This document shows positions 7,256-12,668 of a DNA stretch of 21,531 nt, in pieces. The DNA lies in the IMG/VR virus record IMGVR_UViG_2698536335_000017. One strand, given 5' to 3'. The notes under the pieces were generated by a model. The model had not been told where the DNA came from and searched no databases. It was given only the letters and a program-made list of their open reading frames with translations. A program made the position numbers and the translations under genes. Each line of letters starts with the position of its first letter. Position 1 is the stretch's first letter. This DNA comes from a virus (Duplodnaviria > Heunggongvirae > Uroviricota > Caudoviricetes).

Positions 7256-7963
7256 TTATGCCGCCTGTTTTAGTTCGTTAACTCTGATGTTCATTACCTG
7301 AACGCATTTAGCCTGCGCCTCCTCATTGCCAGCCATTAATTGCCAGTCACGCTGATAACGCTCGATGAGTTTTTTCTTGTCAGTTTCTGTTGACGCATAA
7401 TCGCTGAAGTCTTTCAGGATTTGTTCGCAGTCAACCGATGGAGATTTCTGGTTGGTATTTTCTGGTGATGGTTTGTTATCTGATGCTGGTATTGCCCATC
7501 CCGGCAGCGATGGAGGGAGCCAGTAAAATCCTGTTCCATCCTTGAGTTTTGCCCTGTGCCATCCCTGCTTTTTATCGAGAGATGTTTGTGCGAAACCTTC
7601 CTCAAGGTTATACAGATACCGACCGATTCCCCACTGAACGGCAGCGCGCTTCATTGCACCGGAACGACCACCTTTGACGGCTTCTACCTGCGTGTTTTCA
7701 GCAGCATCCCATTTGGTTACCCATTCGGAATCAATCTTTATTGATATGCCGCATTCAACGCCGCCGTTGTTGGGAATATCGCGGTATTCATTGCGCCATC
7801 CTGCTTTGCCGCAAACATCGTCCAGGCGTTTCATGATTGCCCGGTTCGTTACATAAGCCAGCACCATAGCCCACACTTTGCCATCGCGTGTTTTACCGCT
7901 TTGCTGTATTCGCCATTCGATATCTTCAGGGCTGAATGGCTCATCGAATTTATTCAAATCCAT
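7256..7963 (-). CDS. Single-strand annealing protein, Rad52/Sak-like (235 aa)
   Basis: Central AMKRAAVQWGIGRYLY matches the Rad52/Sak signature G-I-G-R-Y-L-Y. It sits where lambda has bet, upstream of ssb and exonuclease, with SD GAGGTG. Confidence 0.65.
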   Translation of the reverse strand: MDLNKFDEPFSPEDIEWRIQQSGKTRDGKVWAMVLAYVTNRAIMKRLDDVCGKAGWRNEYRDIPNNGGVECGISIKIDSEWVTKWDAAENTQVEAVKGGRSGAMKRAAVQWGIGRYLYNLEEGFAQTSLDKKQGWHRAKLKDGTGFYWLPPSLPGWAIPASDNKPSPENTNQKSPSVDCEQILKDFSDYASTETDKKKLIERYQRDWQLMAGNEEAQAKCVQVMNIRVNELKQAA

Positions 7964-9496: not shown

Positions 9497-9796
9497 TCAA
9501 ATAAGTGGTTTGCTGCCTAATTTCATTTTCTGGCGACCAACACAAGTCACACCCATTTCACTGCGTGGCTTGCGGTAGTAAATACGGTTCTGTTTACGCT
9601 CTACTTCTTCTGCCTTCTTGCAGCGAAGGCTTCCGAGTGATGCTGCTTTATCTGCTCTGACGCAACCAGAGAGCTTTAGCGCAATTTTTCGCGCCAGTCG
9701 CTGCTCTTGCATTGCCTGTTCACGTTGAGCCTGTCTGCGTGCTCTGCGGCGATTTCTGGCGTTATCGTCAGCCAGATATGTAATGACTACTGTCAT
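9497..9796 (-). CDS. N: Antitermination protein N (99 aa)
   Basis: N-terminal arginine-rich motif NARNRRRARRQAQREQ; C-terminus RIYYRKPRSEMGVTCVGRQKMKLGSKPLI aligns with recalled lambda N. SD GGAGG 5 nt upstream; nutL upstream. Confidence 0.85.
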   Translation of the reverse strand: MTVVITYLADDNARNRRRARRQAQREQAMQEQRLARKIALKLSGCVRADKAASLGSLRCKKAEEVERKQNRIYYRKPRSEMGVTCVGRQKMKLGSKPLI

Positions 9797-9937
9797 GTTG
9801 ACCTCCGATGATTGACTTTGGCGATTGGATGGCCGGTGCTGAACTCCGGCTTATTTACAGGCACCTTGTTCTCCCGAAGCTCTCCTGCGCGCATCAGCCT
9901 GCGCATTCATCCAATCCCAAAGCCAACTACTCTTTGG

Positions 9938-9980
9938 TTCCCGCATTTCGGCGGGACAATCCCATCAATGTTAAAGAGCC
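9938..9980 (-). promoter_or_regulatory. nutL: nutL: boxA (GGCTCTTTAACA) plus boxB hairpin (TCCCGC-CGAAAT-GCGGGA)
   Basis: Minus-strand boxA at 9980..9969 followed 11 nt later by a boxB hairpin 19/20 identical to the one at nutR. Confidence 0.8.
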
Positions 9981-10022
9981 TGCCAATCTGTTCCGTTTGG
10001 CTTCCAGCGTCCTGCTGATGGC

Positions 10023-10112
10023 TAAAGAATACTGTAGGTATTTTATTGGGTAAATACCCAAGGTATTTATTTTTGGTGAAATAATGATAAGCAAATGAAT
10101 ACAAAGGATATT
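10023..10112. promoter_or_regulatory. OL operator cluster / pL promoter region
   Basis: Sites 10028..10042 (AATACTGTAGGTATT) and 10053..10067 (AATACCCAAGGTATT) match the AATAC-N5-GTATT consensus also present at OR; a weaker third site is at 10098..10112 (AATACAAAGGATATT). A minus-strand TATTCT -10-like hexamer overlaps the first site. Confidence 0.6.
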
Positions 10113-10198
10113 TATTTTTTCGTTGTCTGCTTGTTCAGTGCTTTTTATGCGGGATATGTGAAGTTGACCCCGATAGCTATTGCTGCCGGGATTATAGG

Positions 10199-10432
10199 TT
10201 AGTCAGCGAAGGTTAAGACGAGAATTACCTTAATGATGTCTGCTACAACAGACACGGCCATAGATAAACAAAAGACGATCCAAGCCATAGAGATGTCTTC
10301 ACTACCATCGTATAGAGTTCCGTAATCACTGGTGTAAGGCGTAAATGTCGCGCCTTGATACAATAGGTATAAGCTTGATCCATAGAGGATAAATGCAGAT
10401 ATCCCTTGTATTGCTATGATCACTAGAATCAT
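10199..10432 (-). CDS. Small two-helix membrane protein (77 aa) downstream of cI, rex-position gene
   Basis: Two hydrophobic segments (MILVIIAIQGISAFILYGSSLYLLY ... WIVFCLSMAVSVVADIIKVILVL). Same strand as cI, so likely read from pRM in lysogens. Confidence 0.5.
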   Translation of the reverse strand: MILVIIAIQGISAFILYGSSLYLLYQGATFTPYTSDYGTLYDGSEDISMAWIVFCLSMAVSVVADIIKVILVLTFAD

Positions 10433-10453
10433 GAAACGAGCTGATCTATGCGC

Positions 10454-10567
10454 CTAAGCCTGGCTTATTTTTTCTGATAGAGATTTCGCAATAAAAGCAT
10501 GCGCTAAGCCGTAAATTGTCGAGATTGCCAACATCCCCAAAAAGCTTGCTATAGCGGTTCCAACCAT
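10454..10567 (-). CDS. Small hydrophobic peptide (37 aa) immediately downstream of cI
   Basis: Hand-translated: MVGTAIASFLGMLAISTIYGLAHAFIAKSLSEKISQA. ATG 17 nt after the cI stop with AAGGTG 7 nt upstream. Confidence 0.4.
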   Translation of the reverse strand: MVGTAIASFLGMLAISTIYGLAHAFIAKSLSEKISQA

Positions 10568-10584
10568 AATCGCACCTTGCGTGA

Positions 10585-11301
10585 TCAAACCAGCCTTAGT
10601 TTTGTCTCAATTGCAACGCCTATAATCTTGCAGTTTCCATTGATTGGCACGAGAGGCCATGCAGGATTAAGTCCCTTGAGGTATTTATTTCCGCCGTCGA
10701 TTATCAGCTTCTTGAATGTTGCTTCGTTAGAGTCAGAAAGTTTTGCTATGACCAAGCTGCCGTTGATCGCCTCCCTTCCGGTATCGAAAAGAACGAATGT
10801 TCCCTCTGGAATGCTTAACCCAACCGGTGCCGTCATTGAATCACCTTCCACTTTAAGCCAGAACGCATTACCTTGAATATGCGCGTCAGACTCAAGCCAA
10901 ACATCTATGTCTTTAATGGTGTATGGTTCGCATGCTTCACACCACGAGCCAGCCTGGATACTGCTTAACACCGGATACCTCTTTCCTGCTCTGTATTCCC
11001 CTGCATACCTTACGTTGGCATCGCTCTTAAGGCTTTCTGCCTGTTCTGCAACCTTGGCAGCAATTGACTGGCTAAAATCAGCAATTGAGACTTGCAACAA
11101 TCGTGCAAAACCAGATGCAACCTCAACGTTTAGCGCGTTTCTGCCATTAAGATAATGCCCTACCGCTCCTTGGGTGATACCCAGTTCATCAGCGATTGAG
11201 TATTGGGTTATTCCCAATTCTTTCTTTTTTGACTCATACAAAGCCTTAAGCCGCTTAGCGTCTTCGAGCTGTTCTGTCGTCAGTGATTTTTTATTTTCCA
11301 T
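10585..11301 (-). CDS. cI: CI repressor (HTH N-terminal domain plus LexA-like S24 self-cleaving C-terminal domain), 238 aa
   Basis: N-terminus resembles lambda CI (LTTEQLEDAKRLKALYESKKKELGITQ) with a different recognition helix; the C-terminal domain (SWCEACEPYTIKDIDVWLESD ... FWLKVEGDSMTAPVGLSIPEG ... ATFKKLIIDGGNKYLKGLNPAWP) resembles 434 CI as recalled. Divergent from cro across the operators. Confidence 0.9.
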   Translation of the reverse strand: MENKKSLTTEQLEDAKRLKALYESKKKELGITQYSIADELGITQGAVGHYLNGRNALNVEVASGFARLLQVSIADFSQSIAAKVAEQAESLKSDANVRYAGEYRAGKRYPVLSSIQAGSWCEACEPYTIKDIDVWLESDAHIQGNAFWLKVEGDSMTAPVGLSIPEGTFVLFDTGREAINGSLVIAKLSDSNEATFKKLIIDGGNKYLKGLNPAWPLVPINGNCKIIGVAIETKLRLV

Positions 11302-11306
11302 AGCTT

Positions 11307-11379
11307 AATTCTAATAGCTAAGGTACTTAAACTAAAAATACCCTGAGTATTGATTGCTTTGAATACCTGTAGTATTCTT
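11307..11379. promoter_or_regulatory. OR operator cluster with divergent pRM and pR promoters
   Basis: Three sites about 24 bp apart: 11313..11327 (AATAGCTAAGGTACT, weak), 11337..11351 (AATACCCTGAGTATT), 11361..11377 (GAATACCTGTAGTATTC). pR candidate: -35 TTGATT (11351..11356), 17-bp spacer, -10 TATTCT (11374..11379). pRM candidate -10 TAGAAT on the minus strand (11307..11312) with leaderless cI. Confidence 0.65.
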
Positions 11380-11407
11380 TGTTCATGGTTAATAACGGAG
11401 AGTGCAT

Positions 11408-11602
11408 ATGATTCGAATGACACTTGCCGATTACGCCAAAATCCATGGACAGGCTAAAGCAGCCAGTGACTTTGGTGTAATCCAGTGCGCTATCAGCAAG
11501 GCCATTCTGGCAGGCCGTAACATCATGGTTACGGTAAAGCCTGATGGCAGTGTGATTGGAGAGGAAGTTCGTCCTTTCCCAAGCAACAAGAAAAACAAAT
11601 AG
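11408..11602 (+). CDS. cro: Cro repressor (about 64 aa)
   Basis: Translation [64 protein letters not shown] aligns with recalled lambda Cro. SD GGAG 7 nt upstream; the start could instead be the GTG at 11402. Confidence 0.85.
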
Positions 11603-11608
11603 TAACAC

Positions 11609-11653
11609 CGCTCTTTAACAGTCATGGTCCTCATTCCCGCCGAAATGCGGGAA
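11609..11653 (+). promoter_or_regulatory. nutR: nutR: boxA (CGCTCTTTAACA) plus boxB hairpin (TTCCCGC-CGAAAT-GCGGGAA)
   Basis: Consensus boxA at 11609..11620 followed 13 nt later by a 7-bp stem hairpin at 11634..11653, nearly identical to the nutL boxB. Confidence 0.8.
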
Positions 11654-11659
11654 TACAAC

Positions 11660-11694
11660 GCGCATAAGTTGATGCGCATAACTTCTTATTTGTT
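11660..11694 (+). terminator. Candidate tR1 terminator
   Basis: GCGCAT-AAGTTG-ATGCGC hairpin followed by a T-rich stretch, between nutR and cII as for lambda tR1. Confidence 0.4.
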
Positions 11695-11710
11695 AAGGAA
11701 ATACTTACAT

Positions 11711-11989
11711 ATGGAACTTACAAGTACTCGCAAGAAAGCGAATGCAATTACAAGCAACATCCTGAATCGAACTGCTGTACGTGGTCAGCGAAAGGTTGCC
11801 GACGCGTTAGGGATTAATGAATCGCAAATTTCGCGATGGAAAGACAGCTTCATCCCAAAAATGGGAATGCTTCTGGCTGTTCTTGAATGGGGTGTTGAAG
11901 ACGAGGAGTTGGCGGAACTGGCTAAGAAAGTAGCCAGAATGCTGACAAAAGAAAAAGCCCCGAAGAACGGCGAATTCTTCGAGGCCTGA
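11711..11989 (+). CDS. cII: CII transcriptional activator (92 aa from ATG at 11711)
   Basis: Translation ... GINESQISRWKDSFIPKMGMLLAVLEWGVEDEELAELAKKVARMLT aligns with recalled lambda CII. The six-frame ORF start at 11624 would overlap nutR. Confidence 0.85.
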   Translation: MELTSTRKKANAITSNILNRTAVRGQRKVADALGINESQISRWKDSFIPKMGMLLAVLEWGVEDEELAELAKKVARMLTKEKAPKNGEFFEA

Positions 11990-12023: not shown

Positions 12024-12668
12024 ATGACATACGAAAATGACAAATTCCAGGTTCTGAAGAGCATGAAGGTGCCAGATGATTTTAAATCAAATGGCTTTGT
12101 TTATGTGCTTTCGAATGAGTGCATGCCAGGAATTTATAAGATTGGGATGACTAAGCATTCACCAGAAGTCAGGGCTAAAGAAATTTCAGCCTCTACTGGC
12201 GTTCCTAAGCCATTTAAGGTGATAGCAGCCTTTCATTCAAATAATCCCGCATCAGATGAAAAACTCATTCATAAAGCCTTTGCAAAAGAGAGGCTTAGTG
12301 ATAATCGAGAGTTTTTCAAGCTTGAAGATAATGATCTTTCTGAATCTCTAAATGAAATAAGGGCGCTGGTTGGCCCTGAAAGAAATGGCGAGACGGCAGA
12401 ATACGCAATTTACGACTCATTCATTTCTTTTCGCCATGAAAATGAGCTTGATCTTAATGAGGAGCTTATAGAGCAAGGTCTGGGTAGTGTAGTTGGTCAT
12501 CTTCCTGCGGTGAAAAATTTCCTTATTCGCGCCGGAATTGATTACGCGAAGCAACTGATAAGCAAATATAACTCATCGATAGTTATTAATACAGATGGCA
12601 GTGTGGTGATGGTTAAGTTTCTTGAAGCCCAATGCTTTGATGCGGAGGTTGGAAATGAGCCTGGCTGA
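12024..12668 (+). CDS. T5orf172 / MUG113-type GIY-YIG-like domain protein (214 aa) inserted between cII and O
   Basis: N-terminal GFVYVLSNECMPGIYKIGMT ... EVRAKEIS ... PFKVIAAFHS ... EKLIHKAFAKERLSDNREFFK fits the T5orf172 pattern. Strong SD AGGAG 5 nt upstream; C-terminal about 90 aa unassigned. Confidence 0.55.
   Translation: MTYENDKFQVLKSMKVPDDFKSNGFVYVLSNECMPGIYKIGMTKHSPEVRAKEISASTGVPKPFKVIAAFHSNNPASDEKLIHKAFAKERLSDNREFFKLEDNDLSESLNEIRALVGPERNGETAEYAIYDSFISFRHENELDLNEELIEQGLGSVVGHLPAVKNFLIRAGIDYAKQLISKYNSSIVINTDGSVVMVKFLEAQCFDAEVGNEPG

Follow-up and report, generated by a model that had tools for sequence, protein, structure and literature searches.

Does the cI cassette at positions 10023-11379 of this prophage define an immunity specificity of its own, and to which phage does that specificity belong? 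The first-pass annotation of the sequence analysed here (the window, 21,531 bp in full) described a repressor that is mosaic between lambda and 434 and a dyad, AATAC-N5-GTATT, shared by OR and OL, and it regarded the immunity type as not assignable to a named phage. The last statement has to be withdrawn, as the cassette is assignable to HK620 (also to mEpX2, HK630 and HK140) at 98.8-99% identity. From the comparisons described below, we consider it very probable that the cassette serves an HK620-type lambdoid prophage as its primary immunity region, with a lambda-style bistable switch in which CI and Cro would bind the operators.

The nucleotide identity to the HK620 immunity region was 98.8% over 1,471 bp (9950-11420) without gaps, and the segment OL-hkaS-cI-OR-cro was 98.4-99.0% identical, also ungapped, to those of HK620-type phages. 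Besides mEpX2, HK630 and HK140, the same immunity type was found in HF4s, HZ41, phi296, phi367, 611R6 and the Stx2c phages EH1904 and 5044. The HK620 GenBank record AF335538 annotates OL1-3, OR1-3, pL and pR. When we mapped this annotation onto our sequence (window = locus + 8449), OL1, OL2, OR1-3, pL and pR coincided with the positions in the window. The sequences of OL1, OL2, OR1-3, pR and nutL/nutR are identical in HK620, whereas HK620 lacks two single-base peculiarities of the window, the amber codon in hkaS and the G at 10049 in the -35 of pL, and a 92-bp stretch between N and nutL is substituted. The features of the region are summarised in Table 1.

Table 1. Positions of the immunity region features and neighbouring genes in the window.
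Feature	Position	Strand	Remarks
N antiterminator	9497..9796	-	99 aa; leads the pL operon; same start as the annotated N of HK620
nutL	9939..9980	-	boxA GCTCTTTAAC and boxB hairpin TCCCGCCGAAATGCGGGA; mapped from HK620 annotation
pL	10026..10054	-	-35 TTTACC (10054-10049), 17-bp spacer, -10 TATTCT (10031-10026); HK620-annotated
OL1	10027..10043	.	GAATACTGTAGGTATTT; exact dyad; HK620-annotated
OL2	10052..10068	.	AAATACCCAAGGTATTT; exact dyad; HK620-annotated
OL3 position of the HK620 record	10074..10090	.	TGGTGAAATAATGATAA; PWM score -26.7, rank 14,724/21,515
Candidate third OL site	10097..10113	.	GAATACAAAGGATATTT; 1 mismatch; 45 bp from OL2; PWM rank 5/21,515
hkaS homologue	10199..10567	-	HK620 annotation; hydrophobic protein; amber codon at 10454-10456
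cI repressor	10585..11301	-	238 aa; HTH N-terminal domain (~1-92), linker, S24 C-terminal domain; Pfam HTH_3 and Peptidase_S24
Predicted pRM -10	11308..11313	-	TAGAAT; 6 nt before cI ATG; by analogy with lambda
OR3	11312..11328	.	TAATAGCTAAGGTACTT; weak; HK620-annotated; 10 nt from cI ATG
OR2	11336..11352	.	AAATACCCTGAGTATTG; exact dyad; HK620-annotated
pR	11350..11378	+	-35 TTGATT, 17-bp spacer, -10 TATTCT; HK620-annotated
OR1	11361..11377	.	GAATACCTGTAGTATTC; exact dyad; HK620-annotated
cro	11408..11602	+	64 aa; lambda Cro family, Pfam PF09048, E = 3.6e-26; HK620-annotated
nutR	11609..11654	+	boxA CGCTCTTTAA and boxB TTCCCGCCGAAATGCGGGAA; mapped from HK620 annotation
cII	11711..11989	+	Pfam Phage_CII, E = 1.2e-41

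The immunity specificity is thus already known and is not a new one. The region was reportedly sequenced and annotated in the HK620 paper of Clark, Inwood, Cloutier and Dhillon (2001, J Mol Biol 311:657). We found it in 146 of 5,426 complete E. coli genomes (~2.7%), and the cassette is ordinary, because its annotation in HK620 dates from 2001 and E. coli commonly carries it; as a discovery it carries little weight. The searchable literature yielded incidental mentions of HK620 but no binding, footprint or transcript experiments on its CI or Cro, and the operators are assigned here from their sequence and from comparisons. We type the prophage as immHK620 (mEpX2 type), which predicts superinfection immunity against these phages and against some Stx2c phages. 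Outside the cassette the prophage is mosaic in another way: some parts are 99% identical to phage 434, and others match N7 or mEpX2.

The exact dyad occurs four times in the whole 21.5-kb window, at 10028-10042, 10053-10067, 11337-11351 and 11362-11376, with two copies on each flank of cI, so the same operator type is present at OR and OL as first described. Three of the positions given initially for exact sites (10028, 10053 and 11337) were correct, and the site placed at 11361 starts at 11362. The sites at 11313 and 10098 are weaker: 11313-11327 reads AATAGCTAAGGTACT with two mismatches to the dyad, and 10098-10112 reads AATACAAAGGATATT with a single mismatch, in line with its description as a weak third OL site. 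Shuffled sequences are expected to contain 0.01 exact dyads, and none of the 100 shuffles reached four. In the scan with a position weight matrix (PWM; symmetric half-site, 21,515 positions ranked, 200 shuffles), which had been proposed as a check, the four exact dyads scored 20.8-23.8 and exceeded the highest shuffle maximum (18.7). The two weak sites ranked 5th (10098, score 12.6) and 7th (11313, score 9.25) and fall within the range of the shuffle maxima (mean 11.5, 95th percentile 16.5), so they are credible only because of their location. The centre-to-centre distances were 24 bp for OR3-OR2 and 25 bp for both OR2-OR1 and OL1-OL2, which agrees with the spacing of about 24 bp noted earlier for OR; the third OL site is the outlier.

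Could these dyads be chance palindromes or sites for a factor other than CI and Cro? The number of exact dyads is far above the expectation and they overlap both early promoters. A search with the dyad pattern alone retrieved 120 viral and 57 genome loci, and the arrangement recurs beside homologous CI/Cro genes in 66 and 15 of them, respectively. Moreover, the Cro protein fits the half-site. Under the published "evolutionary code" of Cro (PMC6649833), a recognition helix with Gln, Ala and Lys at positions H1, H3 and H6 should go with the half-site bases A2, A5 and C6. All three bases are present in 8/8 half-sites of the four strong operators. We therefore regard the chance or other-factor reading as having a negligible probability, and treat the dyads as putative CI/Cro operators.

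The cI and cro genes are divergent, and the tripartite OR lies in the 106-bp intergenic region between them. OR3 shares bases with the predicted pRM -10, and OR2 and OR1 with the hexamers of pR; on the other side OL overlaps pL, with nutL and N downstream of it. The same TATTCT hexamer, as the first-pass annotation had pointed out, overlaps the promoter-proximal operator on each side, at 11373-11378 (+) with OR1 and at 10031-10026 (-) with OL1. A sigma-70 consensus scan of 9900-11720 returned no promoter at the 9-of-12 threshold, pR and pL matching at 8/12 each. Both being below the threshold, the promoter calls rest on position, on the HK620 annotation and on conservation in relatives, in which the TTG at the edge of OR2 and TATTNT over OR1 are maintained for pR. 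The N open reading frame had a weak match to Pfam N_peptide, below the curated cutoff.

The repressor matched the lambda repressor 3BDN along its full length (E = 2.9e-52). In the N-terminal domain the identity was 51% with lambda CI and 23% with 434 CI; in the C-terminal domain it was 39% with lambda and 72% with 434, so the mosaic nature suggested for CI is borne out. Judging from the 72% and 51% amino acid identities, this pattern reflects an old divergence rather than recent recombination between lambda and 434. The residues expected for self-cleavage, Ala117-Gly118 in the linker together with Ser155 and Lys197, align with A111-G112, S149 and K192 of lambda. CI is identical to that of mEpX2 (238/238) and differs from that of HK620 at one position (237/238, A66T). 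Cro scored 91.3 bits against its family profile, for which the gathering cutoff is 32.7.

The cassette resembles lambda in its homologous CI N-terminal domain, in the Pfam family of its Cro, in operators of 17 bp built around a central base pair and in a tripartite OR whose OR3 has the same distance to the cI ATG. The OR spacing of 24-25 bp compares with 23-24 bp in lambda, and the predicted pRM -10 precedes the ATG by the same 6 nt (TAGATT in lambda). By this analogy, the placement of the pRM -10 implies a leaderless cI mRNA. The operators share the half-site bases A2, A5, C6 and C7 with those of lambda, but the half-site is AATACY here and TATCACC in lambda, and no match to the TATCACCGCCGGTGATA-type operators of lambda was found at up to 3 mismatches. 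The recognition helices differ as well: that of CI is QGAVGHYLN, compared with QSGVGALFN in lambda, and that of Cro is not the YQSAINKAIH of lambda. The likeness to 434 is confined to the C-terminal cleavage/oligomerisation domain, including AGSWCEACEPY, EGDSMT and ATFKKL. Operators of the 434 type (ACAA-N6-TTGT) are absent from OR and OL, and 434 Cro belongs to a different family. By its N-terminal domain and its operators the cassette is not of 434 immunity; only the C-terminal domain is 434-like. Comparison with lambdoid operator sets, also proposed at the outset, thus gave a match to the HK620 annotation and none to lambda or 434.

The mechanism is inferred from homology, and binding, cooperativity, looping, the start point of pRM and the status of the third OL site are all at the level of inference. 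CI dimers would bind 17-bp operators of the form N-AATACY-N3-RGTATT-N. Bound to OR1 and OR2 they would block pR, and bound to OL1 and OL2 they would block pL, by which cro, N and all lytic genes would be silent. CI at OR2 probably activates pRM, whose predicted transcript begins at the cI ATG, and the intrinsically weak OR3 would give negative autoregulation. During lytic growth Cro, with its lambda-family fold, would bind the same operators. Induction would proceed by RecA-stimulated self-cleavage of CI at Ala117-Gly118, presumably catalysed by Ser155 and Lys197 of the 434-type S24 domain.

The gene downstream of cI is of a different kind in each phage. Here hkaS takes the position of rexAB in lambda, and in 434 the position is taken by hex. 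A relationship of hkaS to 434 Hex was considered and rejected, as the proteins are unrelated despite the shared position. The hkaS product matched phrog_6534 (unknown function) and had no Pfam match. The window has TAG where HK620 has TGG, and TGG is present in 24/24 related copies. At 10049 in the pL -35, T (giving TTTACA) is present in 17/17 related copies. Both changes are absent from all related copies examined, and this particular prophage may be decaying. A stronger version of this view is that the cassette is a relic, with switch elements that are still recognisable but no longer control a viable phage; in addition to the two changes, the best phage record covers at most 33% of the window. 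We find this unlikely: neither cI nor cro is damaged, and both are identical to their counterparts in mEpX2, a viable phage; none of the four strong operators departs from the dyad; and hkaS lies in a cargo position and is probably non-essential.

At OL the third site is a candidate only. The OL3 feature in the HK620 record, at 7888-7904 in HK620 coordinates, would fall at 10074-10090 in the window. It was placed there by the deposited annotation, and its centre is 22 bp from that of OL2, a lambda-like spacing, but TGGTGAAATAATGATAA is unlike the motif, as its matrix score and rank show, and this is the most variable stretch of the OL region among close relatives. We judge it very improbable that this is the true OL3, and the feature in the record looks misplaced. 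The site at 10098, in comparison, is nearly invariant among close relatives while the neighbouring 10069-10096 varies; the one change it shows falls in the spacer, where the motif specifies no base. Members of the HK620-like subgroup keep the dyad at the homologous site with 0-2 mismatches despite diverged flanks, and in one of them (L011) it is perfect. By these comparisons the 10098 site is the better OL3 candidate, though it is oddly spaced and lies inside the annotated terminator.

It is nevertheless quite plausible, if short of probable, that OL has only two functional operators, and that the 10098 dyad is part of an AT-rich element or putative terminator, tIMM, which ends the cI-hkaS transcript, its resemblance to the operators being compositional. 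The site lies within tIMM as annotated in HK620 (10087-10117 in the window), its 45-bp distance to OL2 contrasts with 24-25 bp elsewhere, and its matrix score is within the shuffle range. A conserved ...ATTTATTTTT element is found here even where the OL3 of relatives lies at +21 or +30 from OL2. Against this, the site ranks fifth in the whole window and is less than 50 bp from OL2, and its dyad is conserved as described. Reading the AT-rich stretch 10087-10117 by eye for an IHF site or UP element, we saw no WATCAANNNNTTR match. If the 10098 site is the third operator of the HK620 lineage, its overlap with the cI-operon terminator could tune OL-OR looping.

The operator type extends beyond the HK620 lineage. 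Viral contigs from IMG/VR gave 34 distinct diverged CI/Cro pairs, in which the identity is 62-100% for the N-terminal domain and 46-100% for Cro. These pairs have AATACY operators at both OR and OL and maintain the layout of the cassette. As the set was gathered by the dyad pattern, one operator pair in each locus has its outer bases (5+5) conserved by construction, and independent observations are confined to the second operator pair, the inner bases, OR3 and the protein helices. Prophages of at least 12 enterobacterial genera carry related CI/Cro pairs. The CI helix [TS]QG[AG]VGHY[LM]NGR and the Cro helix Q-x-A-I-S-K are conserved in the 34 pairs, and the OR3 homologue has TAATACC with a degenerate right half in 29/30 diverged relatives. 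Phage Fostie (CI 62% identical overall, helix TQSAVGHYLNGRNALN) was left out, as an exact dyad is missing upstream of its cI; by eye, only GTAC/ATAC variants are seen there.

Depending on the lineage, the third OL site is at +21, +30 or +45 bp from OL2. It is conceivable, though we hold it to be doubtful, that the AATACY operator defines a very broad "super-immunity group" with cross-repression across genera; published Cro/operator databases may already contain such a group implicitly. The diverged relatives form a natural data set on how CI and Cro of the lambda family keep or change their operator specificity, and two classes of Cro recognition helix, IQCAISK and HQTAISK, are present among the pairs.

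Over its full length, 9950-11420 is 98.4-99.0 % identical to sixteen phage records, including HK620, mEpX2, HK630, HK140, HF4s, HZ41, phi296, phi367, 611R6 and two Stx2c-converting phages. Against HK620, we counted 18 substitutions and no gaps over 9950-11719. The window CI is 100 % identical to that of mEpX2 and matches HK620 CI at 237 of 238 residues. The features annotated in the HK620 GenBank record (AF335538; Clark et al. 2001) include OL1, OL2, OL3, tIMM, hkaS, cI, OR3, OR2, OR1, pL, pR, cro, nutL, nutR, pRE and cII. When mapped (window = locus + 8449), the HK620 OL1, OL2, OR3, OR2 and OR1 coincide exactly with the sites of the first-pass annotation extended to 17 bp. That annotation, made from the sequence alone, could not assign the immunity region to a named phage, but its type is that of HK620. 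The region (at least 80 % of its length) is present in 146 of 5,426 complete E. coli genomes and, given the identity with HK620, its annotation and this abundance, the specificity is a known, named and common one. No report of a binding or footprinting experiment on an HK620-type repressor was found in the literature searched, which did not extend to Clark et al. 2001, and as far as can be told the operators have only ever been assigned from sequence. The earlier observation is confirmed and its interpretation supported, the feature being the already annotated HK620-type immunity region; what we add is a probable misannotation of OL3 in the HK620 record, two changes specific to the window, in hkaS (an amber codon) and in the pL -35, and a view of how broad the AATACY operator family is.

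The 21,531-bp window holds four exact AATAC-N5-GTATT dyads, at 10028, 10053, 11337 and 11362, where 0.01 were expected from dinucleotide-preserving shuffles, none of 100 of which gave four. The strong dyads proposed before are all present, but the last had been placed one base off, at 11361. Allowing up to two mismatches, the window scan also recovered the proposed weaker sites at 11313 (AATAGCTAAGGTACT, two mismatches) and 10098 (AATACAAAGGATATT, one mismatch). A position weight matrix (PWM) scan, which the first-pass annotation had suggested as a check, was run with a symmetric half-site matrix trained on the four exact sites. These scored 20.8-23.8, above the top score of 18.7 over 200 shuffled control windows. 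Positions 10097-10113 (12.6) and 11312-11328 (9.25) ranked 5 and 7 of 21,515 in the window, scores that on their own fall within the chance range (mean shuffle maximum 11.5), so that their credibility as operators comes from their position. Pattern searches of OR (between cI and cro) and OL (at pL) in the window found neither lambda-type nor 434-type operators.

Features of the immunity region, with domain identities of CI
Feature	Position	Strand	Remarks
nutL and N-like gene	left of operator clusters		
TATTCT (pL -10)	10031-10026	-	overlaps promoter-proximal operator
Hydrophobic ORF (hkaS)	downstream of cI	-	in-frame stop splits ORF in window
cI	10585-11301	-	238 aa; Pfam HTH_3 and Peptidase_S24
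CI N-terminal domain	residues 1-92		51 % identity to lambda CI, 23 % to 434 CI
CI C-terminal domain	residues 108-238		39 % identity to lambda CI, 72 % to 434 CI
TATTCT (pR -10)	11373-11378	+	overlaps promoter-proximal operator
cro	11408-11602, right of OR		Pfam Cro PF09048, 91 bits
nutR-like boxA/boxB	after cro, right side		
cII	right of nutR		Phage_CII, E = 1.2e-41

The -10-like hexamer noticed at first pass was found at both OR and OL, with -35-like hexamers 17 bp upstream (TTGATT for pR, TTTACC for pL). A generic promoter scan over 9900-11720 reported neither pR nor pL, because each agrees with the consensus in no more than 8 of 12 positions. At window 10049 the pL -35 departs from the TTTACA of HK620 and of 17/17 related copies that could be anchored, and by this comparison the change is specific to the window and leads away from consensus. 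The layout of OR resembles that of lambda, as the distance from OR3 to the cI ATG is 10 nt in both phages and a -10-like hexamer (TAGAAT in the window, TAGATT in lambda) stands at the OR3 edge, 6 nt before the ATG. From this position, the cI mRNA made from pRM is predicted to be leaderless, as in lambda.

Two minus-strand genes, cI and the hydrophobic ORF, lie between the operator clusters. Codon 38 of the latter, hkaS (10199-10567, minus strand), is an amber TAG at 10454-10456 that divides it into pieces of 37 and 77 aa; it is TGG (Trp) in HK620 and in 24/24 related IMG/VR copies.

Regarding CI, the protein aligns to lambda repressor (3BDN) over its full length (E = 2.9e-52), and the self-cleavage site Ala117-Gly118 and catalytic residues Ser155 and Lys197 are conserved. 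The domain identities, calculated against lambda and 434 CI from annotated records, and the alignment of the recognition helix (QGAVGHYLN, QSGVGALFN in lambda) confirm the proposed mosaic CI with a distinct recognition helix. Since the identities are only 51 % and 72 %, the mosaic reflects an old divergence and is not the product of a recent cross between lambda and 434. In relatives, the identities of the N-terminal and C-terminal domains vary independently (for example 67 %/89 %, 84 %/75 % and 74 %/57 %). Three related loci (L087, L093 and L079) encode an N-terminal domain 78-84 % identical to that of the window without the 434-type C-terminal domain, and these proteins, together with the independent identities, support the two-module view of CI. 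In L087 (3389-4186), the one of the three whose fusion partner was inspected, a different S24 domain (VRVRGDSMWP...) is joined just past the AAKVA-QAESL linker, which by its sequence makes it a natural example of domain shuffling.

In the published Cro helix code (PMC6649833), the bases A at +2, A at +5 and C at +6 go with Gln, Ala and Lys at helix positions H1, H3 and H6, respectively. The window Cro (I-Q-C-A-I-S-K) has these three residues, and A2, A5 and C6 are present in 8/8 half-sites of the four strong operators when these are read, like those of lambda, as 17-mers around a central base pair. In lambda repressor, Gln44 contacts A2, Ser45 base pair 4 and Asn55 base pair 6. We take Gln44 and Asn55 to be retained in the window system with their bases (A2, pair 6), while the Ser45 position is presumably Gly in the window CI, with A-T instead of T-C at half-site positions 3-4.

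A scan of IMG/VR for two dyads 9-11 bp apart gave at least 120 loci. In 66 of the 120 listed, a homologue of the CI N-terminal domain or Cro is encoded no further than 120 nt from the pattern; 14 more have these homologues elsewhere in the locus, and there the pattern therefore lies at OL. Complete cI and cro were present in 71 of the 120 loci listed, with at least 34 distinct N-terminal-domain/Cro pairs. The 34 pairs listed are 62-100 % (N-terminal domain) and 46-100 % (Cro) identical to the window, and in all 34 the cI-cro spacer is 103-108 bp long and holds three sites at the same spacing. As the loci were fetched with the dyad pattern, one operator pair in each necessarily keeps its outer 5+5 bases. 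Free of this constraint, the pairs listed also keep the CI helix-turn-helix [TS]QG[AG]VGHY[LM]NGR, the Cro helix Q-x-A-I-S-K, Y at half-site position 7, the pR -35 TTG at the OR2 edge and a TATTNT -10 over OR1. In 29 of the 30 distinct spacers listed, OR3, likewise unconstrained, is TAATACC followed by a right half that is degenerate; its distance is 23-24 bp to OR2 and 10-11 nt to the cI ATG. The exception, window and HK620, carries G at position 6, where the others have C. Across relatives, this pattern argues that OR3 is a genuine site and weak by design. The same two-dyad scan, applied to reference genomes, placed the family in prophages of Lonsdalea, Tatumella, Scandinavium, Pectobacterium, Providencia, Kluyvera, Photorhabdus, Pantoea, Phytobacter, Siccibacter, Lelliottia and Enterobacter.

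Double AATACA...TGTATT dyads also occur in Pasteurellaceae (L131, L150, L158, L160, L161, L174, L176) and Pseudomonas genomes (L135, L172, L173, L180). At several of these loci the CI-like repressors encoded are all distant, with 35-52 % identity to the N-terminal domain over short stretches. The dyads may belong to a related but distinct operator/repressor family. Phage Fostie (L004 1270-1510, PP925832) has a CI with 62 % overall identity whose recognition helix (TQSAVGHYLNGRNALN) is almost unchanged, and encodes a lambda-type Cro absent from the PP925832 annotation; its cI-cro spacer carries GTAC/ATAC variants in place of the exact dyads.

The OL3 annotated in HK620 corresponds to window 10074-10090 (HK620 record 7888-7904; TGGTGAAATAATGATAA). 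With a PWM score of -26.7 (rank 14,724 of 21,515) it is unlike the operator motif; the feature is probably a misplaced annotation, and it is very improbable that it marks the true site. For 10097-10113, we lean slightly towards a real, weak OL3. Its place as fifth-best motif match in the window speaks against an OL of two operators only, a reading to which we give somewhat less than an even chance and which draws on the two weaknesses of the candidate, its distance of 45 bp from OL2 and its location inside the annotated terminator tIMM (10087-10117). Among the matches listed, relatives have a clear third OL site at a variable distance from OL2: +21 bp in one large group, +30 bp in another and +45 bp in the HK620-like subgroup (0-2 mismatches, a perfect copy in L011). 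In close relatives the 10097-10113 dyad has one change, in the spacer, and 10069-10096 has several. The likeness of this candidate OL3 to an operator could be partly compositional, because an element ...ATTTATTTTT is conserved at its position in almost all lineages.

A conserved AT-rich element ...GATTTATTTTT lies at 10100-10118. Nearly all the diverged relatives have it too, some 45-65 bp past OL2 (homologous position in L006-L121), regardless of the cargo next to it. It bears the tIMM label in HK620, although its stem is almost all A-T and the T-run is on the + strand; possible roles are those of a terminator, a sequence marking a module boundary, or an upstream promoter element.

Outside the cassette, the 92 bp between the N start and nutL (9824-9915) do not match HK620, where the corresponding stretch is 57 bp long; as both flanks are 99-100 % identical, a short segment within the pL leader has been substituted. 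Between cII and the O replication gene, a 214-aa ORF (12024-12668, + strand) with T5orf172/MUG113 domains (GIY-YIG-like) is found where HK620 has the small hkaW, and is possibly a moron or defence-type insertion. The stretch 1331-21531 is mosaic. Phage 434 matches about 31 % of the window at 99 % identity, a share that takes in the integrase, a lipid A deacylase and replication genes, other prophage parts match N7, mEpX2 or mEp235, and the maximum window coverage by any phage record is 33 %.
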